Source: Ignavibacteriota bacterium
GTDB taxonomy: Bacteria > Bacteroidota > Ignavibacteria > UBA10030
Direction of reading: 5' to 3'
Assembly (NCBI GenBank): GCA_022616555.1
Contig: JAKEEG010000066.1
Span: 1,702 to 65,701, forward strand
Length of the DNA stretch: 64,000 nucleotides
In this document: one piece after another, positions 4,865 to 56,662 of the stretch
Layout: each line of letters starts with the position of its first letter
How positions within the stretch are numbered: position 1 is the first letter of the stretch
The notes under the pieces: generated by a model
What the model saw: only the letters and a program-made list of their open reading frames with translations
Database searches by the model: none
Told to the model about the DNA's origin: nothing
Position numbers and translations under genes: made by a program

Positions 4865-5392
4865 ATGTTCTGGCTCCAAATCGTTGCTAACTTTCTGAAA
4901 ATCTTACGCGCGGGGCAAACGCCGCAGCAGATTGCCGGCGGGTTTGCGCTTGGTTCCATCCTCGGGCTTTCGCCGATGTTCACTCTGCAGGGACTGGCGG
5001 TCTGGCTGCTGATACTTATCCTGAATGTCAATCTCTCCGCCGCGATTCTTTCGCTTACGCTGTTCAGTCTCGTCGCATTCATCTTCGACCCCGTGTTCCA
5101 TTGGCTGGGGTATGAAGTGCTTGTCAACGTTGATGAATTAACTGGCACGTGGACGGCGCTCTACAACGCGCCGATTGCGCCGCTCACGCGTTTCAACAAT
5201 ACGGTGGTCATGGGAAGCTTTCTGAGCTCACTGGTACTTTTTGTGCCAGTGTACTTCGGAATGAAACAATTTGTCGTTGCGTACCGGTCGACGCTGGGTG
5301 CGCGAATCGAGAAATGGAAAATCTATCAAATCATCAGCAAAAATTTTATCGTGCGGTGGTATAACCGCATCAAGAATTTTGGCTCGTCATAA
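4865..5392 (+). CDS. TIGR03546/DUF2062-like small membrane protein
   Basis: 175 aa. The GGFALGSILGLSPMFTLQGLAVWLLILILNVNLSAA pattern matches this family, which conventionally pairs with a TIGR03545 protein. The call rests on family-level memory. Confidence 0.55.
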   Translation: MFWLQIVANFLKILRAGQTPQQIAGGFALGSILGLSPMFTLQGLAVWLLILILNVNLSAAILSLTLFSLVAFIFDPVFHWLGYEVLVNVDELTGTWTALYNAPIAPLTRFNNTVVMGSFLSSLVLFVPVYFGMKQFVVAYRSTLGARIEKWKIYQIISKNFIVRWYNRIKNFGSS

Positions 5393-10667: not shown

Positions 10668-10788
10668 CCTTGTATCCCCTCTCGCTCTGCTCTTGCCCAC
10701 ACTCGAGAGGGGGCTCATGCACACGAGCCTTGAAAGTCCCCTCTGTGTATATGCAAGCGGGCTTGGGAGAGGGGATTTAGGGGTGTGC
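10668..10788. repeat. two REP-like GC-rich hairpins in the hisB-hisH intergenic gap (CCCCTCTCG...CGAGAGGGGG; GTCCCCTCT...AGAGGGGATTTAGGGGTGTG)
   Basis: Inverted repeats are visible. The second unit recurs at 17911-17964 at roughly 80% identity. Confidence 0.65.
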
Positions 10789-17863: not shown

Positions 17864-17910
17864 ATGCAGAGTGCAGAATGCAGATTGTAGAGTGAGAATA
17901 ATGTTGGTTA

Positions 17911-17964
17911 AAGTCCCCTCTGTGTGTAAGCGAGTGTGGGAGGGAGACGGGATTTAGGGGTGTG
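17911..17964. repeat. REP-like element (AAGTCCCCTCTGTGTGTAAGCGAGTGTGGGAGGGAGACGGGATTTAGGGGTGTG), second copy of the unit at 10733-10788
   Basis: Direct comparison gives roughly 80% identity over 55 bp. It lies in the intergenic region between etfB and etfA. Confidence 0.65.
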
Positions 17965-19679: not shown

Positions 19680-20645
19680 TTGTTGAACCTCATCGACGAC
19701 TTCCAACGCACACGAAGGAATCCTCTGTTGAACGCTCCCGATACCCGTATGCCTCAAAGCCGCAGGGTTAGCGTAGTCAGTGCGTTTCCCAGTATCCCGC
19801 AGTTTTTTTGCGGGGCGAGCGTCCTCGTGTTGATGTTTCTCAACGTGCTGCCAGCCCTCGGCGCAACTCAGATTTCACCCCCTCCGCATGTGAACGATAC
19901 GACAGCCATTGCTCAAGCCGTCGTTGTAGACAGCATGTCCGCGCTCTTCCTTATTCAGGAGGGCGACGAGTTTGCCGAGAAGGAGTTCGACAACCAGCGC
20001 GCGCTCGCACGCTACCTGGACGCCCTGACGGTTGAGCCTAACAGCGACGAGATCTTCTGGCGCATCAGCCGCGCGTATGTGGACATTGCCGAACACCTGC
20101 CGTCCGTGACCGAGAACGACCGCACCTACCAGCTTGCAACGTACGAGCGGGCGATGGAGTATGCCAACAAGGCGATCGGCGCAGACCCGGGCAGCTCGAT
20201 GGGCTACGCCCGCCGAGCCGTAGCAACCTCACGCATTGCGATGTTCAGTGGCGTGTGGGAGTCGAGCGAGCTGATTAACCGCGTCCGCGAGGACGCGCAA
20301 CGGGCAATCGAGCTTGACCCGCGCAACAGTCTTGCCCACTTCATGCTGGGCCGCACGCACGAGCGGACGAGCGAGCGCCCGTGGATGTTCCGCGTTGTGC
20401 TGGGACTGGCGTGGGCCGACCTGGAAGAAGCAGCCGTGCATTATGAAGAAGCCATCCGCCTGCGCCCCGATTTTATCTCCTACCGCATTTCCTGCGCCCG
20501 TGCGTATTTTGAATTGGGCGAATATGAGAAGGCAAAAGCTCATCTTTCGGTTATTCCCTCCCTCCTCAAGCTGGACGAGGACGACGACCGCTTCAAGCAG
20601 GAAGCCAAAGACCTCGTGGAGAGAATCCGCGAAGAGGAAGAATAA
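19680..20645 (+). CDS. hypothetical TPR-like helical repeat protein (possibly secreted; start uncertain)
   Basis: 321 aa with a hydrophobic segment (VLVLMFLNVLPALGA) followed by helical repeats and an acidic tail. I recognise no specific family. Confidence 0.4.
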   Translation: MLNLIDDFQRTRRNPLLNAPDTRMPQSRRVSVVSAFPSIPQFFCGASVLVLMFLNVLPALGATQISPPPHVNDTTAIAQAVVVDSMSALFLIQEGDEFAEKEFDNQRALARYLDALTVEPNSDEIFWRISRAYVDIAEHLPSVTENDRTYQLATYERAMEYANKAIGADPGSSMGYARRAVATSRIAMFSGVWESSELINRVREDAQRAIELDPRNSLAHFMLGRTHERTSERPWMFRVVLGLAWADLEEAAVHYEEAIRLRPDFISYRISCARAYFELGEYEKAKAHLSVIPSLLKLDEDDDRFKQEAKDLVERIREEEE

Positions 20646-20665
20646 CCTCCCCGCTCACAAAAAAT

Positions 20666-20748
20666 GTCATTGCGAGGCGCCTTATGCCGAAGCAATCTCA
20701 CCGCCGAAGAAAAACGAAATTGCTTCGCTGGAAAACGCTCGCAATGAC
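20666..20748 (+). repeat. two-stem palindromic element E2 (GTCATTGCGAG...CGAAGCAATCT...GAAATTGCTTCG...CTCGCAATGAC) followed by a T-run; probable terminator of the upstream gene
   Basis: Homologous to E1 (9206-9290), with compensatory changes in both stems. It is followed by TGGCTTATTTTTTT. Confidence 0.7.
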
Positions 20749-21421
20749 TGGCTTATTTTTTTGAATGGTGTTTTAAGGATTACTGTCATCTCATACCTAC
20801 CTCTTAACTCCTAGCGTTTTAAGCAGTTATACGATTTTACATTTTCATTGCATTTTTCTCTTGACTTTTCCATTTATCATCATTACATTAAATATCAATA
20901 ATTAGTTAGTATAGCTGTTATCCTGATTCAGCAGGGTAATGGCACCTTCGGGCGTACGGTCTGCAGCTGCCCGCTCGGAGTAAGCGAATTATCAATGTGT
21001 TTTCCTAACTCACTGGCGTCCCCCTCAGCGTCCTTTGTAAGGGCCTACGACACGAAATCCGCTAAGTGCGGACTTCGGGCTCTGGATGCTCTGGGTCGGA
21101 GCCCGCGGGCCTGCCCGCCATTTTTGTGGCGGGGATGTTGCCCGTTCGGGCCGTGCCGAGTGAATCTATTTGTCGTCAACTCTCTCTTAGCCTCGGTGCG
21201 ACGCCTTTCAGTTAGGATAAATTAAAGAAAGCAGGTAATCAGTAAGATAGTAAGCAGTTAGACAACAGCAGATACCGCCACGATCGCCAACAGGCAAGCC
21301 AGACGCTTTCCAAAGAAAAAATCACAAAAGCGTAAAGGCAGGCATGCCTGCCGAAGTGTTTTCGGCACGTAGGCAGGGGTGTGTACATTGGGAGAAGTGG
21401 TCTCAAAAGCTCGAAGGGATT

Positions 21422-21482
21422 GTCATTGCGAGGCGCCTTTTGCCGAAGCAATCTAACCCCAGAAGAAAAACGAGATTGCTTC
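21422..21482 (+). repeat. truncated copy E3 of the two-stem element (lacks the 3' outer arm)
   Basis: Near-identical to the 5' 60 nt of E2. Confidence 0.6.
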
Positions 21483-21574
21483 GTCAGAGATGGAATCCTT
21501 TTTGTACTTAACAATGTCGAGAGTCTTCAACAATTCCTACAAAACTTTCCTGGAGGAATGGAACAGAGAAGATA

Positions 21575-21664
21575 AGAAAGTGGGGGCTTGATTTATCAAG
21601 CCCGTGTTATTTTGCAATCGTAGGGGTTTGATGAATCCATTTGGGTTTGATGAATCAAACCCCT
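21575..21664 (-). terminator. hairpins downstream of the MFS transporter gene (GGGCTTGAT-tt-ATCAAGCCC; GTAGGGGTTTGAT...ATCAAACCCCTAC)
   Basis: A 13-bp stem overlaps the stop codon region of the minus-strand gene, with an additional 9-bp hairpin next to it. Confidence 0.5.
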
Positions 21665-22833
21665 ACAGTCTTGTCCACCCCCTTCCCCCTCTTGTGCGAA
21701 ATCCACAGTGCGAGGGCGCAGACGGCGGCGGCGGCGAAGAACGGCAGCGAGTAATTCCACTCGAACAAAATACCGGCGAGCGGGGGACCAACGACCATCA
21801 TCGCGGCGATGACAGACGACATAATGCCGATGATCTCGCCTTTCATCGTCGGGTCGGCAAGCCCTGCAGCACGGCTGACGAATACGACGCGCAGTGTCGA
21901 GTGCGCGACGGAAAGAATCGGGATGCTGACGGCAAACACGTAGGGGTTGCGGATACCCATCAGTACCATGCTCACACCCATTGCGCTGAGCATACCGAAC
22001 TCCAATTGAGACTCCGTGTATTGCTTCAGCCAGAACGAACGCAAGAAGACCGCTTGGTTGAGTGCCATGAACAGCCCGGAACCCGTGAACATCAACCCGG
22101 TGGTAAACGAATCGAACTCCAACGCGCGCTCGGTGTAGAGCGCGAAAACCGTCTGCGAGGTCATAAATGCCAGCCCGAAGAGTATCCACGAGATGTAGAG
22201 CGGACGCAGGGGTTTATCGTACAGCGCACGCGCGAGCGGCGTAAACGGGTTATAAGTAATCGGCGCGGTGCGGCGTTTGTCGGGAGGCAGTGTCTCCGGC
22301 AAGGAAAAATAAGCCACGACGGTATTGGCAAGCGCGAGGAAGCCGGTGAACAGGAAGGGGAGCGAGTGCGATGTTGTGCTCAGGAATCCGCCCAAACTCG
22401 GACCGACGACGAAGCCAATGCCCCACGTTGCGCCGATGAGCCCGAGGTTTGCAGAGCGTTCTTTATCGTCATGCGCGATGTCAACCAGATAGCTCTGCGC
22501 GATGGTGTAATTGCCGGCCGCAACGCCATCGATAATCCGGCCGAGGAACAACAGCCATATCGTGTGCGCGCTGGCGAAGACAAACCATCCGACAGCCGTG
22601 CTGAAAATGCTGATGAGCAGCACGGGCCTGCGCCCGATTTTATCCGAGAGCGCACCCAAGAACGGGCTGCTCAGGAACGAAAAAAATGCGAACACGGCGA
22701 AGAGCATCGTAATGGTAAATGCCGACGCGCCGAAATCGCCGCCAACGTAATACGGGAGGACGGGGATGACAATCCCGAACCCGAGCACGTCCACAAACAC
22801 GGTAAAGAGAATGGTGAATTTTTGTTTGTTCAT
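21655..22833 (-). CDS. MFS transporter (DHA1 / TetA-like, 12 TM)
   Basis: 392 aa with the motif FTVFVDVLGFGIVIPVLPYY and a loop LSDKIGRRPVL, which are MFS signatures. Confidence 0.85.
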   Translation of the reverse strand: MNKQKFTILFTVFVDVLGFGIVIPVLPYYVGGDFGASAFTITMLFAVFAFFSFLSSPFLGALSDKIGRRPVLLISIFSTAVGWFVFASAHTIWLLFLGRIIDGVAAGNYTIAQSYLVDIAHDDKERSANLGLIGATWGIGFVVGPSLGGFLSTTSHSLPFLFTGFLALANTVVAYFSLPETLPPDKRRTAPITYNPFTPLARALYDKPLRPLYISWILFGLAFMTSQTVFALYTERALEFDSFTTGLMFTGSGLFMALNQAVFLRSFWLKQYTESQLEFGMLSAMGVSMVLMGIRNPYVFAVSIPILSVAHSTLRVVFVSRAAGLADPTMKGEIIGIMSSVIAAMMVVGPPLAGILFEWNYSLPFFAAAAVCALALWISHKRGKGVDKTVGV

Positions 22834-22903: not shown

Positions 22904-23023
22904 CTCCCCCTGTCCGTCTACGACGGACATCCCCCTCAAAGAGGGGGACAAAAGAACTCTGGTTTCATTTCATGTTAAGTCGATTTTGTATATCCCCTCC
23001 CCGAGGGGGATACAGGGGGAGGT
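22904..23023. repeat. cluster of REP-like palindromes (CCCCCTC-aaa-GAGGGGGACAAAAG; ATCCCCTCC-CCGAGGGGGATACAGGGGGAGG) plus the GTCCGTC/GACGGAC hairpin
   Basis: Inverted repeats read directly from the sequence. They lie between the MFS gene start and the 5'-nucleotidase stop. Confidence 0.7.
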
Positions 23024-23036
23024 TTAGAAAAAAACA

Positions 23037-25235
23037 TTACCGCACGAGGATGATAGCGCGTGCGTGGCGGGAGGAGGGCGTTAACATCCGGACGATGTAC
23101 ATCCCGCTTGCCGCCGGCGAGCCGTCGCTGCCGTCGCCTGCCCACCGTACTTGGAATTCGCCTCTCGCCCTCTCTGCATCGAGCAATGTCTTGACTTCCT
23201 GCCCCAGCACATTATACACGCGCACGGCGACACGCGCCGGCGCGGGTATCCCGAATACAATTGTTGTTTCGCGGTTGAACGGGTTGGGATAATTCGGGAG
23301 AATGTAGCTCGTCGTCGGGAGGACGGGCGCTACGTTGGAGACCGGCGGCTGGAGGTAGCTCAAGCCGTTGGTGCGGATTTCTTCCAACTGGTAATAGTAC
23401 GATACGCCGCGCTGGGTGGTTGTGTCGAAAAATTCCGTGGTTGTCAATGAATCCGCATTTAAGTTGGCGAACGGAGCAGTGCCGAGTTTCCGGCGAATGT
23501 TGTACGAGACGACATCGGGGTTGTTTGCCCAGTCGATCAGCACCCCCGTTTCCGTAGAAGTGAACGTGAGCGCGGCCGTGCTTGACGCATTCCACACGCG
23601 CCCCATTTGGATGATACCGGCGTCAAATTCGCCTAAAGAGCCGAGGTATTGTTTCATCGCTTCATCCGCGCCGAAAGCAGTATCTACGCGGCTGATAAAT
23701 TGAATGAGGCCGTTTGATACTTCTCCCGCTAAATCGGCGACAAATTCGTTGAGAGCGATGCGATAAACTTTGTTTAGGTCCAGAGGCTCATTGTTGATCC
23801 AAACATCTTCCACAAAGCCTAACGAGGAAATTGTGTATTGCAATCCAGAGGTTTGGAACGCCAGTCCACCGCCTCCACCGCCGAAAAAATCGGACGACAA
23901 TTGCTGAGCAGAATTGAGCATAAAATGAAACATCGAGCCGGTCATTTCTACGAGCGTGATGCGTTTGCCGAGATTGTGTACCGAGTCGTACGCCCAGGAG
24001 AGCGTCTGCCGAAGCTCCGCAGTGGAGATCGCGCCTGCGTAAAGGCTCTGCCGCATGAGCGATGAGACTTCCAGCGCGGCGTCGGCGTTGGTGGCGTATA
24101 CGTAGGCGTCAGTGACTAAATTCACGAGCGGGGATTCCGGGTTGCCGCCGGAAAAATTATTCTCTGGGAATTCAGCAGTTAACACAGCGACAGTATCGGA
24201 GTACGGGTTGTTGTACGTTGCGTTGATGGAATCGCGGTACGCGTCCAGCAGCGCGGTAAACACGGCGTCTTCATCCAGCGGCGCATCGATTTGATCTAAC
24301 TGGTACGACCACGACTTTGTGCTGTCGGTCAATATCAACGTGAGCATGCCGAGATAGCGCCACTTGGAGCCCGCCTGCACGATAATAGTTGAATCGCCGG
24401 CGGGATTGATTTCGAGCACAGGTTCTTCGAGCGGTGTGTGTGAGTGCCCGCCTACGATAACGTCGATGCCGGCTACGTTCTGTGCGATTCGTCGGTCTTC
24501 GCTCACGCCAAGATGCGTAACGGCGATGATGACATCAACGTTACGTGCAGTAAGTGAGTCTACCATACTTTGCGCTGTGCCGGTAGTGCTTGCAAATGTG
24601 ATTGATTCCGTTTCGCCGTACGAAGTCGTTGTGCGTGTCGTCAACCCGAAGATCCCAACATCCAAGCCGCCGATGTTTTTGACGACGAATGGTTTCACGT
24701 ATTGGTCCAGCCCGCTCGTGTCGGCATTGTACTGAATGTTGGCAGAAAGGATATCGAACATTGCTCCGGATTCCACGATGGCGTTCTTTAATCGGAACGG
24801 ACGGATGTCGAAATCATGGTTGCCGAGCGCCATGGCGGTCATGCCCATTTCGTTGAAGAGCTCAAACTCTGCGCGACCGAGGAAGCGGTTAAAAATCAAA
24901 TCGCCGGTGAAGCTGTCGCCGCCGTGGAGCAACAAGGGATTAACGGATGAATCGCGCAGGACGTTGAGCCGCTGAACAAGCCGAGCCGCCGCGCCGTTTT
25001 GGGGGACGCCGTTCACTTTGGGTCCCCACGGATAGACGTAGCTGTGCGTGTCGTTGATGTGGAAGATGGTCAACGTGTCTTGGGCGTGAATAGTTTGTAT
25101 GAAGAATAAACCGATGAGTAAAATGTTAAGTGTAAAGTAACCCCCTGCGTTCCGGTTAGCCGCGGCTAACCGGAACGCGTCCCCCTTGGTTAGGGGGACA
25201 AAAAAGCTAATGAATTTGTGCATCACACTAAGCAT
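23037..25235 (-). CDS. bifunctional metallophosphatase / 5'-nucleotidase with C-terminal T9SS (Por) sorting domain
   Basis: It has the calcineurin-like motifs GNHDFD and GGHSHT and a 5'-nucleotidase C-domain. The C-terminus (NYPNPFNRETTIVF...VYNVLGQEV...SGMYIVR) is the T9SS type-A sorting signature. The ORF extends to 25361 but the first ATGs are at 25235/25223, so the start is uncertain because REP copies occupy the 5' region. Confidence 0.8.
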   Translation of the reverse strand: MLSVMHKFISFFVPLTKGDAFRLAAANRNAGGYFTLNILLIGLFFIQTIHAQDTLTIFHINDTHSYVYPWGPKVNGVPQNGAAARLVQRLNVLRDSSVNPLLLHGGDSFTGDLIFNRFLGRAEFELFNEMGMTAMALGNHDFDIRPFRLKNAIVESGAMFDILSANIQYNADTSGLDQYVKPFVVKNIGGLDVGIFGLTTRTTTSYGETESITFASTTGTAQSMVDSLTARNVDVIIAVTHLGVSEDRRIAQNVAGIDVIVGGHSHTPLEEPVLEINPAGDSTIIVQAGSKWRYLGMLTLILTDSTKSWSYQLDQIDAPLDEDAVFTALLDAYRDSINATYNNPYSDTVAVLTAEFPENNFSGGNPESPLVNLVTDAYVYATNADAALEVSSLMRQSLYAGAISTAELRQTLSWAYDSVHNLGKRITLVEMTGSMFHFMLNSAQQLSSDFFGGGGGGLAFQTSGLQYTISSLGFVEDVWINNEPLDLNKVYRIALNEFVADLAGEVSNGLIQFISRVDTAFGADEAMKQYLGSLGEFDAGIIQMGRVWNASSTAALTFTSTETGVLIDWANNPDVVSYNIRRKLGTAPFANLNADSLTTTEFFDTTTQRGVSYYYQLEEIRTNGLSYLQPPVSNVAPVLPTTSYILPNYPNPFNRETTIVFGIPAPARVAVRVYNVLGQEVKTLLDAERARGEFQVRWAGDGSDGSPAASGMYIVRMLTPSSRHARAIILVR

Positions 25236-25403
25236 TTTTTTCGCAACATTTTGGATTCCCCCCCCCGCCTCTTCGAGGAACTCCCTCAAGAAGGGGGACA
25301 AAAAAAATCTTTGACCCTCCGCCGAAGATGCAGAGGGAGCAGGGAACGTTTCTGTATGCATTATTAGAAATTCTTCCTCTGTCCCCCTCTACGAGGGGGA
25401 TAC
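25141..25403. repeat. cluster of REP-like palindromes (CCGGTTAGCCGCGGCTAACCGG; TCCCCCTTGGTTAGGGGGACAAAAAAG; ...CTCAAGAAGGGGGACAAAAAAAA; GTCCCCCTCTACGAGGGGGATACAGGGGGAGG)
   Basis: Same family as 22904-23023 and 47184-47216. The first two units fall inside the predicted N-terminal region of the 5'-nucleotidase ORF. Confidence 0.7.
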
Positions 25404-25419
25404 AGGGGGAGGTTATGAT

Positions 25420-30519: not shown

Positions 30520-30622
30520 GACTCTTGCAGCTCGACCCGTACCCGAGCAATGAAGGCAGCACTGGATCTCCTGAGTACATCGCACGGCTTGAAGTTGAAA
30601 AGGTGCAATGATAGTTTTATCA

Positions 30623-30660
30623 CCCTCCTCCCCTAACCCCCTCGGGGAGGGGGACAATAC
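30623..30660. repeat. REP-like palindrome (CCTCCCCTAACCCCCTCGGGGAGGGGGACAATACAG)
   Basis: Same CCCCCTC/GAGGGGGACA family as the other REP copies. Confidence 0.65.
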
Positions 30661-32428: not shown

Positions 32429-33427
32429 TCACTCATAATACGCTTCAAGGTCGAATTTTTTCGTGAGGTAATGTTCCTGCCATTTGGGATTCGCGCGGTC
32501 GAGTAGCATGGCTTCCGCCGCGCCGAACGTATAGAACACCACACGCTGCCCATCGGCGAGCGGCAGCTTCGGCAGGTCGCGCAGGATTTTCGAATTGAGC
32601 GAATCGGCTATGGCAGCGAACGGCTTGTAGTCCTTGAGCGATTGCAGCTCTTTCGACGGTGTATGTTTCTCGGCGGCTAGCTTGGCAACGCGCCACTCGG
32701 TATAACGTGCAATGCCTTCCTGCCAGAGCTGAAATGAAAAATACTTGTAGTCGTCGGGCGAGAGCACATTCTTAAATGCCGTGCGCGCCTCGCGAAACGC
32801 TTTGAGCTTGGCAGGAAGTTGTTCATCGGAAGCTGAAAGCGCCTCGGAAAGGGCGACACACATCGCCGAGAATTTTTCCTGCACAATGGCTGAATCGTAC
32901 GGAAAAGGATAATTCAGCATCCACATGCCCGTCTTGTCGCCGCGGGAAAGCCCCAGCGCTTCGGTGTCAGCATAGTAATTCGGCTGCGACATCTGGAGCT
33001 GGTGGAAATGCTCGTGCAGCACTGTGACGATCCACGCGGTGGAGTTCGTGATGTTCGTTTGCTCCGGTTGCCCGACGACAATCGTTGAATACATATTGAT
33101 GGCGGGGAATGTCGCCAACAGATTCTGAGCGAACAGACGCTTGCGGTACATCAGATACGAGTTCAGGTCCTTGTCAAATCCCGCCGTGTCGAAGTTATTT
33201 GTAGCATGAGGATGATGGACGAGAAACTCATGGTCGGGCCTTACCAACAAGAGCGCGAACGGTGCTTTGCTCCACTCGTGCCAGATATCATCCTGCACAG
33301 TGCTCGCGAGGCGATAGACTTCTTCCATCCGTGTTCGGTCTTCGATGGAAAGCGACGGGTGTTTGAAGTGTGATTGTGTGAAAACAAATGAGGTAGAGCA
33401 GAAAATCAGTATGAGTGTTTTTTTCAA
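32429..33427 (-). CDS. hypothetical secreted protein with HExxH zinc-metallopeptidase motif
   Basis: It has the VLHEHFHQL motif. The alternative TTG start at 33427 gives the signal peptide MKKTLILIFCSTSFVFTQS and avoids a 34-bp overlap with the upstream gene. The ORF-track start is 33481 (TTG). Confidence 0.5.
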   Translation of the reverse strand: MKKTLILIFCSTSFVFTQSHFKHPSLSIEDRTRMEEVYRLASTVQDDIWHEWSKAPFALLLVRPDHEFLVHHPHATNNFDTAGFDKDLNSYLMYRKRLFAQNLLATFPAINMYSTIVVGQPEQTNITNSTAWIVTVLHEHFHQLQMSQPNYYADTEALGLSRGDKTGMWMLNYPFPYDSAIVQEKFSAMCVALSEALSASDEQLPAKLKAFREARTAFKNVLSPDDYKYFSFQLWQEGIARYTEWRVAKLAAEKHTPSKELQSLKDYKPFAAIADSLNSKILRDLPKLPLADGQRVVFYTFGAAEAMLLDRANPKWQEHYLTKKFDLEAYYE

Positions 33428-33447
33428 GAGAATCCTTTTATTGCAAC

Positions 33448-33873
33448 TCAGTTTTGTTGTTCGGCAAGAATGCCGCCCCAATCCTCAGGATCTACATCAG
33501 CAATAGTTTGAGAGAAGGTCCATACATAGCCGCCAATGTCTGCAACAGTGTATTGCCTTTCGCCGTAAGGGTAATCAGTTGGCGGACTTAAGATGCGCGC
33601 TCCGGATTGTTTTGCACGGTTGTAATGTGCGATAATATCTTTTACGCGCACCATCGTCGAATAGCCTGCTCCCCAGAGCGAAACTTCGCCCTGAGTGTTA
33701 GTTCGCTCAGTAATAATGAGCGAGCCACCCTCATACAACAACTGCGAGCGGTGATTTTTTATTTGCAGGCGTTCAACGAACCCGAACGCCCGGCATAGCC
33801 ACTCAACTGCTTTACCCACATCGGGGTATGAAAGCACAGGTATCACGATGCTCGGCGGCATGGATCGGTTCAT
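33448..33873 (-). CDS. VOC family protein (glyoxalase/bleomycin-resistance fold)
   Basis: 141 aa with a typical beta-alpha-beta-beta-beta pattern and the motif GYVWTFSQ. Confidence 0.65.
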   Translation of the reverse strand: MNRSMPPSIVIPVLSYPDVGKAVEWLCRAFGFVERLQIKNHRSQLLYEGGSLIITERTNTQGEVSLWGAGYSTMVRVKDIIAHYNRAKQSGARILSPPTDYPYGERQYTVADIGGYVWTFSQTIADVDPEDWGGILAEQQN

Positions 33874-33913
33874 AGGTCCTTGCAGATAATGTGTTTGATA
33901 TGTTTTAGACGCT

Positions 33914-47177: not shown

Positions 47178-47183
47178 AAATAT

Positions 47184-47216
47184 TGTCCCCCTCCCAGAGG
47201 GGGATACAGGGGGAGA
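47184..47216. repeat. REP-like palindrome (TGTCCCCCTCCCAGAGGGGGATACAGGGGGAG)
   Basis: Near-identical to the copies at 22992-23023 and 25371-25403. Confidence 0.7.
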
Positions 47217-47237
47217 TCTCAGGTCGTGCAAAAAGCG

Positions 47238-47527
47238 TCCAAAGGAAATCGGTATCTTTACAGCGGAGTATGAGCTTTTTTGTTACTTCTTTGCTCGTGC
47301 AAAAGAAGTAGGCAAACCCATAAACTGTGTTAATGATCTTGGGTTCTTTACTTTCTTTCCGAGAAAGAAAGTAACAAAGAAATCTTCCCGAAATCGAAGC
47401 ACACCTCATGACCCCTTCGCTCTTGCCATGATTTCAGCCTTGAGAAGGCGAGGCTGAAATCAAACGCAGTCATGAGTTTGCCTGCCCGCGCCACCTACGA
47501 TTTCGGTTTGCCTTCGCTCAAAAAAAG
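47238..47527 (+). repeat. roughly 290-bp highly structured repeat, copy A (5' hairpin TACTTCTTTGC-tcgt-GCAAAAGAAGTA; nested inverted repeats CGAAATCG/CGATTTCG, CTCATGAC/GTCATGAG, ATTTCAGCC/GGCTGAAAT)
   Basis: Direct comparison with 49030-49270 shows a conserved backbone. Copy A has an extra roughly 75-bp insert that itself contains the palindrome TTACTTTCTTTC-cgag-GAAAGAAAGTAA. Confidence 0.7.
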
Positions 47528-47670
47528 GGAGAAGTGGCCTATCTATAAGCACAAATAGAAACACCACACCGCTGACGCGGAGCGCTTTTTGCGTTTGGCT
47601 CGTCTAAATATAGAGCCGGACTACAAAACACTTTGTCCGCCAAAACCTCGCGAAACCCTTGGAGCACCGA

Positions 47671-48975: not shown

Positions 48976-49029
48976 AGCCAGCAGACGTAGCAGAGAATCT
49001 TTATATTTACGGAGTGGATAGTACTGTAG

Positions 49030-49270
49030 GACAAAGGGAAATATCTGTTAGATTGTTTTTTGTCACTTCTTTGCTCGTGCAAAGAAGTAACCAAGAAAGC
49101 ACGCCGAAATCGTATCTCACGCTCATGATACCTTCCCGCTTGCCGTGATTTCAGCCCCTTTTGACTTTTACCATGATTTTTCGTTTGATACTAAGTGGGC
49201 TGAAATCAAACGCACGTTATGAGCTTCCCTCTCACGCCGCCGTCGATTTCGGTTCCCCGCACTCAAAAAC
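49030..49270 (+). repeat. roughly 240-bp structured repeat, copy B (same backbone as 47238-47527, without the central insert)
   Basis: It shares the 5' hairpin (CACTTCTTTGC-tcgt-GCAAAGAAGTA) and the nested inverted repeats. Several differences between copies are compensatory or G-U compatible. Confidence 0.7.
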
Positions 49271-49425
49271 ATTTCGTGAAAAGCTTTTTTTTCTGAACTT
49301 ACCATTCACAGTTGATGTTAATTTGCAGGTTGACAACTTGTGAATAGCGTTTTTAAAAAATATATTTTGAGAATTCGCGCTTTTTGTTGAACTTCGATTA
49401 ACCGTTTAGTATCATTACAGCCCCG

Positions 49426-54240: not shown

Positions 54241-55216
54241 TCGTCTCTTTTTATTTCTTTGTTGTTGTACGGTGTTTGTTCAAGCCCAACAGCCGTTGTT
54301 GAGTCCGAGAGACTCGGTTTCTCTGAGCATCAACGGAAAGTGGTTGAGTATCGACTACGGGCGGCCCTCGAGGAGAGACAGGCCGATTATGGGCTCACTC
54401 GTTCCCTATAATCGTGTGTGGCGCACGGGCGCGAACGAAGCGACGACATTCGTTACAACGGGAGATATTCGTATAGGAGATGCAGAGATTCCGCGCGGCA
54501 CGTATACGCTCTATACGTTTCCATCGATGACACAGTGGAAGCTCATCATCAACAAGCAAACCGGGCAGTGGGGGACAACGTATAACCCCGACCTCGATTT
54601 TGCCCGCATCGACTTGAAAATGCGCCGGCTACGAAAGGCTATTGATACATTGACAATTACTCTTGGACGGACGAACGGCCGGTCCGGGATTCTGACAATT
54701 GAATGGGAGTACACCTCGCTCAGCGCGCCGTTCGAATTTTTGCAAGATGCGTTCATTGCCAGCCCACGCGATACGACCGAGCTGGTAATCGATGGCAAGC
54801 GAATTGTCATCGATTACGGCCGCCCCTCACGCCGCGGGCGCACGATTATGGGAGCCGTGGTGCCGTTCGGCGAGGTGTGGCGCACCGGGGCGAACGAGGC
54901 GACAACGTTCAGCACCGAAGCGGATCTGGTGATCGAGGGCGTTGAAATCCCGCGCGGGTCGTACACTCTCTATACGCTGCCCTCGCAGAATATTTGGAAA
55001 CTCATCCTGAACAAACAGACCGGGCAGTGGGGCACGGAATACGACCGAGCTCAAGACCAGGCTCGTATCAACATGAAAAAGCAATCGCTGAAAAACATTG
55101 TTGAACGGTTTACGATTACATTGGAGAAATCGAGAGCGGATGCCGGCGTGCTGAAGCTGATATGGGAAAAAACTCAGTTATCCGTACGTGTCTCGCTGAA
55201 GAAGAACGCACATTAA
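54221..55216 (+). CDS. tandem DUF2911-like domain protein (secreted)
   Basis: It has a signal peptide and two internal repeats of about 130 aa (IDYGRPSRR.R.IMG..VP...VWRTGANEATTF...IPRG.YTLYT.PS...WKLI.NKQTGQWGT). Confidence 0.55.
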   Translation: MINQYLNRLFLFLCCCTVFVQAQQPLLSPRDSVSLSINGKWLSIDYGRPSRRDRPIMGSLVPYNRVWRTGANEATTFVTTGDIRIGDAEIPRGTYTLYTFPSMTQWKLIINKQTGQWGTTYNPDLDFARIDLKMRRLRKAIDTLTITLGRTNGRSGILTIEWEYTSLSAPFEFLQDAFIASPRDTTELVIDGKRIVIDYGRPSRRGRTIMGAVVPFGEVWRTGANEATTFSTEADLVIEGVEIPRGSYTLYTLPSQNIWKLILNKQTGQWGTEYDRAQDQARINMKKQSLKNIVERFTITLEKSRADAGVLKLIWEKTQLSVRVSLKKNAH

Positions 55217-55231
55217 CCAGAGGTATACGAT

Positions 55232-55462
55232 ATGCCGACGAAGATCATTATTAAAAATAACGGGTCGATTAAGGTGGAAGGCGATTTTGAGCTGTATGAC
55301 GAGAATGGAAACAAGTTCGATTTAGCGGGGCGCACGAGAATTTCCCTCTGCCGTTGCGGGCAAAGCAACGATAAGCCGTTCTGCGACCACGCTCACCGGG
55401 CGATCAACTGGTCGGCCCCTGTTGTTGCACGGACGCTTCCGCCGCCCGTACCAAAGCCATAA
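55232..55462 (+). CDS. CDGSH iron-sulfur domain-containing protein
   Basis: 76 aa with the CRCGQSNDKPFCDHAH motif (C-x-C-x8-C-D-x2-H). Confidence 0.75.
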   Translation: MPTKIIIKNNGSIKVEGDFELYDENGNKFDLAGRTRISLCRCGQSNDKPFCDHAHRAINWSAPVVARTLPPPVPKP

Positions 55463-55631
55463 AAGAAATGGGACCCCGCATTAAAACATTACGGGGCAGG
55501 CGCGGAAACAGCGAATCTTGAATAGATAAAAACGGATATAAAGCAAACGCAAAAAATAAAAGCAACATCTCAGCGGTATCCTGATTTATGCTGTATCTGT
55601 TCTTATCCGTTTCATCCGCCTTTTCCGCGTC

Positions 55632-56471
55632 CTATTGTTTCATCCTTTGCCTCACCACTTCATACAAAAACGCCGCACTGGCGCTAGCTACATTGAGCGA
55701 ATCCACGCCGTTGTGCATGGGAATTGCCGCGTGCGCGTCGCAGGCTGCGAGGACCTCCACTGAAATTCCTTCGCCCTCGCTGCCGAACACGACACAGCAA
55801 TCTTTGCGAAAATCCGTCTGGTGCAAAGTTTCTCCCGTGCCATGAGGATGGGCGGCGATACAACGAATCCCATGAGCGGTTCGCAATTCTTTCAGCGTCT
55901 CAACCAGATGCCCAACGTGCACCACGGGGAGCTTGAACACCGTTCCCATCGAGTTGCGCACCGCGCGGCGCAAGTACGGACTGCTGGATGTTTCTCCTAC
56001 CAGCAATGCCTGGACGCCAAAGCCCACGCAGTTACGGACGAGCACGCCGAGGTTTTCCGAATTTGTTAGCCCGTCTATCGCTACAAAGAAGTACGGTTGT
56101 GCCGAGCGCTGAAGCATGTCGTTGAGCCGTGCCGGCTCCGGGATTTTTCCTACTGCCATAATTCCCTGGTGCAGGTTAAACCCGACAATGCCCTCGACCA
56201 ATTCCTTTTTCGCGACAAACACATCAATGCTCTGCTGTCGCGATTCGAGGAGGGACTGAAGGATGGAAAGCCACTCCGGAGTAAGCAACATGGAAACAAC
56301 CGGTAAGTCGCTTTCCACCAAGCGGCGCACGACCTTTTCGCCTTCCGCGACGAACATGCCCTGCCGTTGGTGTTCCAAAGGCATGCGCAGTGTGCGGTAG
56401 AGCTCCAGACCCTGAGCATCGAGTGAATGGATGTTTTGTATCTTGAGCATATAATTGAACGTATAGTACAA
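55632..56471 (-). CDS. RNA 2'-O-methyltransferase, TrmH/SpoU family
   Basis: 279 aa with a SPOUT C-terminal region (VVFGSEGEGIS) and an N-terminal substrate-binding domain. Confidence 0.8.
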   Translation of the reverse strand: MYYTFNYMLKIQNIHSLDAQGLELYRTLRMPLEHQRQGMFVAEGEKVVRRLVESDLPVVSMLLTPEWLSILQSLLESRQQSIDVFVAKKELVEGIVGFNLHQGIMAVGKIPEPARLNDMLQRSAQPYFFVAIDGLTNSENLGVLVRNCVGFGVQALLVGETSSSPYLRRAVRNSMGTVFKLPVVHVGHLVETLKELRTAHGIRCIAAHPHGTGETLHQTDFRKDCCVVFGSEGEGISVEVLAACDAHAAIPMHNGVDSLNVASASAAFLYEVVRQRMKQ

Positions 56472-56522
56472 GAAGCTAAGTTGTGAAGCAATTGTCTTTT
56501 GGAAGGCCGGATGCTTGTGATG

Positions 56523-56578
56523 TCAGGAGTTACCTCCTGACATGAGCAGTTTTTCGGTCAGGACGTAAGTCCTGACCG
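56523..56578. repeat. tandem hairpins sharing a GTCAGGA/TCCTGAC core (GTCAGGAG-ttac-CTCCTGAC; CGGTCAGGAC-gtaa-GTCCTGACCG) in a divergent intergenic region
   Basis: Two perfect stems (8 and 10 bp) with tetraloops. The first is followed by AGTTTTTC. Confidence 0.6.
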
Positions 56579-56662
56579 CACTAATACGGATGCTACTTCC
56601 TTTGTTCGCAAACCAATATTTCGCTATCTTGTTTTGGTTGAGTGTAAGAACACCGCAACGAA

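Follow-up and report, generated by a model that had tools for sequence, protein, structure and literature searches.

A candidate accessory structured RNA in a hot-spot spacer between convergent TPR and MFS genes of an Ignavibacteriota bacterium

Introduction

What occupies 1 kb of gene-free DNA between two convergent genes that relatives keep close together? The question is raised by contig JAKEEG010000066.1 of an Ignavibacteriota bacterium (assembly GCA_022616555.1), of which we analysed a stretch of 64,000 nucleotides, here denoted the window (coordinates are window positions unless another contig is named). Positions 20646-21654, between the stop of a TPR-like open reading frame (ORF) at 20645 on the plus strand and the stop of an MFS ORF at 21655 on the minus strand, are noncoding. 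A preliminary description, made from the letters of the DNA, had noted a promoter-like motif and a GC-rich core of hairpins in this gap and proposed a small RNA (sRNA) or a decayed locus. The reading we prefer, at a probability of about 0.45, is an accessory, independently transcribed structured RNA of ~470 nt (20896-21362, plus strand), whose transcription, strand, ends and any function are predicted from sequence.

Results

The gap is an insertion at a hot spot

The gap is the longest noncoding one of the window, followed by gaps of 481, 450 and 415 nt, and a crude gene call leaves 593 nt of it noncoding even when a spurious 91-aa ORF is accepted. The convergent gene-free gap of ~1 kb is therefore present as first described. 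Its neighbours are a TPR gene (RMD1-3-like) on the plus strand and an MFS transporter gene on the minus strand. This convergent pair is kept in at least 30 Ignavibacteriota loci with spacers estimated at ~50-200 nt; the spacer measures 148 nt in the nearest species and 58 nt in locus L091. Since the spacers of relatives are short, the window carries ~860 extra bases, indicating an insertion.

In the sister species we distinguished three alleles of the spacer. The first is empty, an identical 148-nt spacer in L009, L092, L093 and L094. The second, in L097 and L003 (L097 1615-3148; also L004), holds a TIR-APAZ gene and then the start of a second gene. The TIR-APAZ gene of L097 matches Aga_TIR-PNTD1-PNTD2 of PADLOC (E = 3e-124), which indicates a SPARTA-like short-Argonaute defence operon. 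The third allele, in L089 and L090, consists of a leucine-rich-repeat (LRR)/type IX secretion system (T9SS) surface-protein gene and a noncoding unit of 546 nt, partly homologous to the core of the gap. The TPR-MFS spacer is a hot spot for defence and accessory genes in these Ignavibacteriota. Empty and filled alleles were found in one ENA sample (L094 and L089), the swap of alleles replaces even the last MFS codons, and the TPR gene of L089 is ~8% diverged from that of the empty allele. Together these data suggest that alleles were replaced by recombination in the flanks rather than by transposition.

The syntenic spacer lacks the unit in at least 30 relatives. Of seven contigs with the sister-species empty or LRR-plus-unit allele that reach into or across the spacer, five are without it. 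Searches of the region with blastn and nhmmer against 80 syntenic Ignavibacteriota loci gave no match, and no remnant of the LRR gene or the TIR-APAZ gene was found in the gap. As to conservation in relatives, the outcome is divided: most lack the unit, and a partial homologue exists in L089 and L090. The element is accessory and not a housekeeping RNA.

A partial homologue in the sister species shares the layout of the unit

The homologue was located through contigs that carry the MFS neighbour. In an nhmmer search of 1.34 Mb, L089 and L090 were the best non-self matches (E = 0.032, 105-127 nt). This marginal homology is reinforced by a matching 5' arm, by the identical genomic spacer and by the fact that the remainder of the spacer cannot be aligned. 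The two species are 66-70% (TPR) and 80% (MFS) identical at the amino-acid level, and blocks that are retained at such a divergence suggest constraint. The parts of the predicted unit, in order along the plus strand, are the following.

20861-20889, plus strand: sigma-70-like promoter motif TTGACT-17-TACATT, with 9 of 12 consensus matches and a predicted start near 20896
20896-21362, plus strand: predicted transcript, an unclassified structured RNA of ~467 nt from the promoter motif to the conserved terminator, without an Rfam match
20914-20980, plus strand: predicted 5' domain from the fold, hairpins H1 (20914-20943, 12 bp with 3 G-U pairs) and H2 (20946-20980)
21004-21020, plus strand: 5' strand of a predicted long-range helix, CCUAAC-UCACU-GGCGUC, pairing with 21200-21216; the arm in L089 lies at 5200-5218
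21021-21152, plus strand: GC-rich multi-hairpin interior (UCCGC/GCGGA, GGGCUC/GAGCCC, CCCGCC/GGCGGG and GCCCG/CGGGC), lineage-specific, 132 nt against 31 nt in L089
21153-21199, plus strand: predicted hairpin GUGCCGAG/CUCGGUGC with a 31-nt pyrimidine-rich loop (21161-21191), pair probability 0.92-1.0, with a homologue in L089 and L090
21200-21216, plus strand: 3' strand of the long-range helix, GACGCC-UUUCA-GUUAGG; the GACGCCTTnnnGTTAGGATAAA of the window recurs unchanged in L089 and L090
21217-21336, plus strand: purine-rich tail, mostly unpaired in the fold, with repeated AGCAG and GUAAG words, from the fold and alignments with L089
21337-21362, plus strand: terminator-like hairpin GGCAGGCAUGCCUGCC then GAAGUGUUUU, from a motif scan, with a homologous palindrome in L089
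21496-21578, plus strand: 3' flank with short matches to L089 (UCCUUUUUGUA, AACAAUG and GAAGAUAAGAA), from reading the sequence and from inverted-repeat pairs

Common to the window and L089 are the 5' arm (TTCCTAAC..GGCGTC) and the 3' arm (GACGCCTTnnnGTTAGGATAAAnnAAAG). Immediately ahead of the 3' arm both have a GCCGAG/CTCGGC hairpin; their purine-rich tails include ACAAnAGCAGAT, and both carry a GGCAGG/CCTGCC palindrome followed by a T-run. The pyrimidine-rich loop of the shared hairpin measures 31 nt in the window and 23 nt in L089 and L090. Conserved blocks of the tail are AUAAAnnAAAG and ACAAnAGCAGAU. In L089 the palindrome CCTGCCTGCC/GGCAGGCAGG with CCCCTTTTGT is the sole terminator-like site of the region, and a promoter-like TTGATT-18-TATATT lies on the same strand at 4996-5025, its TTGA.T columns aligning with those of the window. 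From the promoter motif to the 5' arm there are 171 nt in L089 and 111 nt in the window. In both, the order on one strand is promoter motif, helix, hairpin, tail and terminator, and the predicted RNAs are of ~427 nt (L089) and ~467 nt (window). Promoter and intrinsic-terminator motifs, as motif matches only, thus bracket a noncoding segment on the plus strand in the window and in L089 alike. Both lineages contain GACGCCTTnnnGTTAGGATAAA, a pattern of 22 nt, without a mismatch; when Joint Genome Institute (JGI) metagenomes were scanned with it, only L090 was returned.

The conserved block contains 1-nt indels between the window and L089, hence there is no shared reading frame. Changes from U-G to C-G and from G-U to G-C keep two pairs of the hairpin stem; both are one-sided. 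The 5' domain has no detectable homology to that of L089, which is a single long hairpin. Relative to the flanks the unit has opposite orientations, pointing toward MFS in the window and toward TPR in L089.

The predicted RNA folds strongly, with a long-range closing helix

Composition changes along the gap. An AT-rich stretch (20751-20895) precedes the core, with GC 0.34-0.39 at 20700-21000 and 0.54-0.60 at 20900-21200, and the purine-rich tail has an AT skew of +0.32. The GC-rich core after an AT-rich stretch was correctly recognised before, as were three of its stems, all found in the sequence; the promoter-like motif is likewise present, 2 nt away from where it had been placed.

The segment 20890-21230 (341 nt) folds at -138.2 kcal/mol on the plus strand (z = -5.5) and at -117.6 kcal/mol on the minus strand (z = -3.4). 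It is because of G-U pairs that the plus strand is favoured in the window by 20 kcal/mol. The whole predicted transcript folds at -169.6 kcal/mol. Of the 12 pairs evaluated in the interrupted long-range helix of 13 bp, ten have a probability of 0.97-1.0 and the two innermost 0.76 and 0.47; its pair probability is near 1.0 in both predicted transcripts. The unit of L089 folds with z = -6.1 on the plus strand.

The preliminary description took CCCGCCA-TTTTTG-TGGCGGG within the core for a terminator. Its T-run sits in the loop, hence it is not a canonical one. A hairpin GCGGGCCTGCCCGC then CATTTTTGTG at 21105-21128, which overlaps it, does fit the terminator pattern, and the terminator shared with the relative lies further downstream at 21337-21362. 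The suggestion of an sRNA gained comparative support from the layout of L089 and L090; in place of a short RNA with its end at the CCCGCC hairpin, the prediction is now of an RNA of ~470 nt that ends at 21362.

Known RNA families and protein genes do not account for the gap

A search of the whole window against Rfam 15, whose families include riboswitches, group II intron domains and HEARO, found no family at the gathering threshold. In E-value mode, the best match within 20500-21800 was isrK on the minus strand, at 26.3 bits against a gathering threshold of 50, a hairpin resemblance only, and the unit of L089 matched nothing at E <= 10. ARAGORN detected neither tRNA nor tmRNA. Signatures of tmRNA, RNase P RNA and signal recognition particle (SRP) RNA had been reported absent, in agreement with these results, and a housekeeping RNA (RNase P, tmRNA, SRP or 6S) was rejected on the ground that the unit is missing from the syntenic spacer of most relatives. 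We also rejected a riboswitch or cis-acting leader, as the gene that comes next, MFS, is convergent and only spurious short ORFs follow on the plus strand. An integron cassette was considered and rejected as well.

The preliminary description had left room for a decayed protein-coding gene, which would suit the GC content of the core, 0.54-0.60, resembling coding DNA of this genome, and the strand composition of 21200-21500, resembling minus-strand genes. The six frames of 20750-21420 gave no match at E <= 0.1 among 5.8 billion protein clusters, Pfam found nothing in nine short ORFs of the gap, and local blastx against ~5,000 ORFs, taken from related loci and from the window itself, was empty. 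A 76-aa ORF, compared with 1.84 billion representatives, met only two low-complexity tandem-repeat artefacts (Cys/Pro/Ser-rich, the score being the sum of identical repeats). These results, together with the frame-breaking indels in the conserved block, make a decayed gene very improbable, and that part of the preliminary description is dropped.

Blastn and pattern scans of the 1-kb region against phage, plasmid and viral-contig DNA returned nothing relevant. No further copy of the GC-rich interior was found within the 64-kb window, and neither there nor in ~670 kb from related loci did a second copy of the unit turn up. The 105-aa ORF called over the unit of L089 is a singleton in a protein cluster look-up. 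A literature search for Ignavibacteria noncoding RNA gave nothing relevant.

Debris or mobile element?

At a spacer where cargo turns over, the shared blocks might be inert remains, that is, old untranslated regions, terminators and palindromes of the repetitive extragenic palindromic (REP) kind, alike in L089 by shared ancestry or DNA exchange. The spacer is indeed a hot spot of replacement, three or more alleles being present, at which the C-terminal tail of MFS is swapped too, the unit of L089 adjoins a cargo gene, conservation is limited to ~130 nt plus short motifs, and palindromic modules are shared piecemeal (25148-25179 and L089 5386-5434 are an example). Neutral DNA, however, should be unalignable at this divergence, as the remaining spacer is. 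In addition, what is retained is a coherent and ordered set (promoter motif, both helix strands, hairpin and terminator) and not random pieces, and no trace of a former gene was found. We consider debris unlikely on balance, while taking it seriously.

A non-autonomous mobile element of the miniature inverted-repeat transposable element (MITE) type, landing in terminator-rich convergent spacers in either orientation, would explain the structure as palindromy at the DNA level. It would agree with the presence/absence polymorphism within a species, with the opposite orientations in the two lineages and with the good folding of both strands in L089. There are imperfect terminal inverted repeats (22 nt, 77%, 20853-20874 and 21557-21578; 12 nt, 83% in L089), and the right end of the L089 unit is the exact point where homology to the empty allele stops. 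These repeats, however, are purine- or pyrimidine-rich low-complexity sequence and resemble a gene leader in L097. Neither candidate boundary shows a target-site duplication, and at the left boundary L089 departs from the empty site, with 546 nt in place of 26 nt. No second copy was found in the DNA searched above and no match in viral, plasmid and phage collections, and the divergence of the L089 TPR gene fits allele replacement by homologous recombination. A MITE-like origin is thus a good deal less probable than debris.

We also rejected an inverton: the repeats 21004-21020 and 21200-21216 enclose no promoter motif, no recombinase gene lies nearby, and Logan contigs run through 21020 without a branch.

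Weighing the transcript reading

Returning to the accessory structured RNA, several results weigh against it. In a scan of the whole window (200-nt windows, 15 shuffles each, rough z-scores) the core ranks only about 12th to 20th of 638 windows, with z of about -4; therefore structure alone does not single it out. The unit of L089 folds equally well on both strands. Taken singly, the promoter motif is at chance level (2 sites against 1.3 +/- 1.1 expected); it does not exceed chance in the window or in L089, and the sigma-70 consensus may not be that of the host phylum. The nhmmer homology is marginal by itself. Only two lineages are available, with helix arms that do not vary in sequence; compensatory covariation is absent, and the pair-preserving changes are one-sided. 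Interiors (132 and 31 nt) and 5' domains are not conserved, and most relatives do without the unit, so that any function would be dispensable.

Variation in the pyrimidine-loop hairpin

Over 4.6 kb, L089 and L090 differ at only two positions, single-nucleotide polymorphisms (SNPs) 12 nt apart (L089 5252 and 5264). Both fall in the pyrimidine-loop hairpin, and one of them, A to C, restores a stem pair in L090. In the species of the window, two independent Logan assemblies end at 21175, within the homologous loop, at a GTC-GTC/(CT)4 microrepeat, which hints at a second sequence context or polymorphism. A 22-mer from the edge of the loop had no exact match in JGI metagenomes. These SNPs and assembly breaks could reflect slippage, relaxed constraint or something targeted. 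One may speculate further that the unit represents a new accessory RNA family of ~450 nt in the hot spot, in which a conserved scaffold, made up of the long-range helix, the hairpin stem and the purine-rich tail, presents a fast-changing pyrimidine-rich loop for programmable or diversifying recognition (a guide, decoy or immunity RNA); this is a long shot.

Repeats and terminators around the unit

The flanks of the unit contain repeated palindromes and the probable ends of both neighbouring genes.

20666-20762, plus strand: E2, a complete nested palindrome of REP-like type, GTCATTGCGAG...CTCGCAATGAC (20666-20748), whose inner stem is CGAAGCAATCTC/GAAATTGCTTCG, then a T7 run (20756-20762), from inverted repeats and the fold
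21421-21486, plus strand: E3, a truncated copy of E (5' arm and inner hairpin, no 3' arm), from repeats; it lies between the terminator stem of the unit and the L089-like flank
21584-21603 and 21620-21666, minus strand: hairpins at the 3' end of MFS, from inverted repeats and a terminator-motif scan

E2 and E3 form a 63-nt direct repeat, 92% identical (20665-20727 and 21421-21483), and are the only copies in the window; no further copies were found in 90 related loci. E2 folds at -31.7 kcal/mol, and no shuffle folds as well; going by its sequence it probably serves the TPR gene as intrinsic terminator. Owing to the palindromic nature of E, its copies E2 and E3 are inverted as well as direct repeats, an arrangement that could in principle allow the segment between them to be excised or flipped. 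Owing to its position between terminator stem and L089-like flank, E3 looks like a later insertion and not a bracket, and it appears to interrupt the 3' flank of the unit. The repeats that had been described as bracketing the region are real; probably, though, E2 and E3 are two independent REP-like insertions. Logan contigs on the right-hand side end within E3, at 21425 and 21429, suggesting more copies of E elsewhere in the genome. A blastn search with E2 of phage and plasmid DNA and a literature search for the E-element sequence yielded nothing relevant.

The two hairpins on the minus strand likely form the MFS terminator, outside the RNA unit. Read on the minus strand, 21496-21578 is a U-rich tract after the MFS terminator hairpin. 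Weak Rfam matches to microRNA families at these hairpins are a hairpin resemblance only.

Could the whole spacer be a cluster of palindromes, REP or bacterial interspersed mosaic elements (BIME), acting as a bidirectional terminator or insulator and an mRNA-stabilising block? REP/BIME clusters of E. coli typically lie in convergent spacers. E2 with its T-run and the hairpins of 21584-21666 look like the terminators of both genes, and the intergenic DNA of the window holds several other palindromic repeat families. E2 and E3 themselves are palindromic and extragenic, with two copies in 64 kb. Relatives, however, terminate the same gene pair within 50-200 nt, so that 1 kb is not needed; the GC-rich core lies outside every repeat family seen in the window, and the conserved promoter-like motif and the long single-stranded tail are left unexplained. 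As an account of the whole spacer such a cluster is improbable.

Other palindromic repeats of the window are as follows. A dispersed REP-like family, CCCCTC..GAGGGGGATACAGGGGGAGG, is intergenic at 22994-23024, 25384-25414, 47188-47218 and, as the reverse complement, 30615-30652; a similar motif occurs in L009 near 5500 and 5680. A 55-nt direct repeat, 84% identical (10733-10787 and 17910-17964) and rich in CCCCTC/GAGGGG, is probably another palindromic intergenic family. Upstream of a 5'-nucleotidase gene, a perfect palindrome GCGTTCCGGTTAGC-CGCG-GCTAACCGGAACGC at 25148-25179 is ~80% identical to L089 5386-5434, a hairpin within the noncoding unit of L089; small palindromic modules are therefore shared piecemeal between lineages.

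Other regions of the window

Between two minus-strand genes there is a gap of ~430 nt (33482-33913, minus strand), in which 33610-33809 folds like a four-way junction (-77.6 kcal/mol, z = -4.9, 200 shuffles) with no Rfam match; a 5' leader or riboswitch-like element of the 350-aa gene (32429-33481) is a possible reading. The next-longest gaps of the window are 47178-47658, 48976-49425 and 55217-55631 (415-481 nt). Low fold z-scores in the rough 15-shuffle scan were seen at 47210-47409 and 49010-49209, inside the first two of these, and at 56410-56609, ~0.8 kb beyond the third. A repeat of 92 nt (54485-54576 and 54944-55035, identity 76%, spacing 459 nt) has the look of a coding segment duplicated in tandem, or of paralogous domains.

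Discussion

The data outline how the locus might work. A noncoding islet of ~860 extra bases would sit in the spacer of two conserved convergent genes, and the sigma-70-like promoter at 20861-20889 would start a plus-strand RNA near 20896. This RNA would fold into a two-hairpin 5' domain and a central multi-helix domain closed by the 21004-21020/21200-21216 helix, display the 31-nt pyrimidine-rich loop on its hairpin, followed by a single-stranded purine-rich tail of ~120 nt, and end at the intrinsic terminator 21337-21362. It would most likely act in trans, either by base-pairing with targets through its two long single-stranded segments or with the repeated AGCAG/GGA words of its tail titrating an RNA-binding protein. 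E2 would double as the terminator of TPR, and E3 would have landed in the 3' flank of the unit.

If the unit is transcribed, it is a large structured RNA outside the known families, in a phylum for which the papers we searched yielded no noncoding RNA, and it lies in a spacer that sister strains use for a SPARTA-like operon, a natural place in which to seek accessory RNA functions. Should it prove silent, the spacer holds common hot-spot debris together with REP-like palindromes. In both cases a pseudogene and a housekeeping RNA drop out as readings, and exact coordinates and a conserved pattern are supplied.

Among known systems, REP/BIME clusters and the Correia elements of Neisseria resemble the locus in being extragenic, palindromic and strain-variable, in occupying convergent spacers, and in that they can carry promoters or terminators. 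A REP-like description fits E2 and E3. The core differs: it is not multi-copy in the available data, has no clear target-site duplication, is larger (~500-730 nt) and has its conserved parts inside.

The large structured bacterial RNAs OLE, ROOL, GOLLD and raiA, of unknown or lately discovered function, like the predicted unit, span several hundred nucleotides, have many helices and a long-range closing helix, and are sometimes carried on mobile or accessory DNA. They are defined by wide conservation and covariation, whereas the unit is seen in two lineages, between which a single helix, a hairpin and a tail are conserved, and it has no Rfam match at any threshold.

In integration and defence hot spots between core genes, the same core pair likewise flanks alternative cargo (here none, LRR/T9SS plus the unit, or TIR-APAZ). 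The difference is that the cargo of the window is purely noncoding, and that in none of the alleles did we see an integrase, an att site or a mobile-element gene.

The unit is one more candidate for a noncoding RNA borne on an island, which is a known kind, and has no known family. The Isr RNAs of Salmonella, IsrK included, differ in sequence and structure (the isrK model reaches 26.3 bits against a gathering threshold of 50, on the opposite strand) and in size, the predicted RNA of ~470 nt being far longer than typical small RNAs, and our host is an uncultured Ignavibacteriota bacterium known from sequence alone. What the unit shares with the Isr RNAs is a strain-variable, horizontally exchangeable intergenic site, a layout from promoter to terminator, and a segment free of ORFs.

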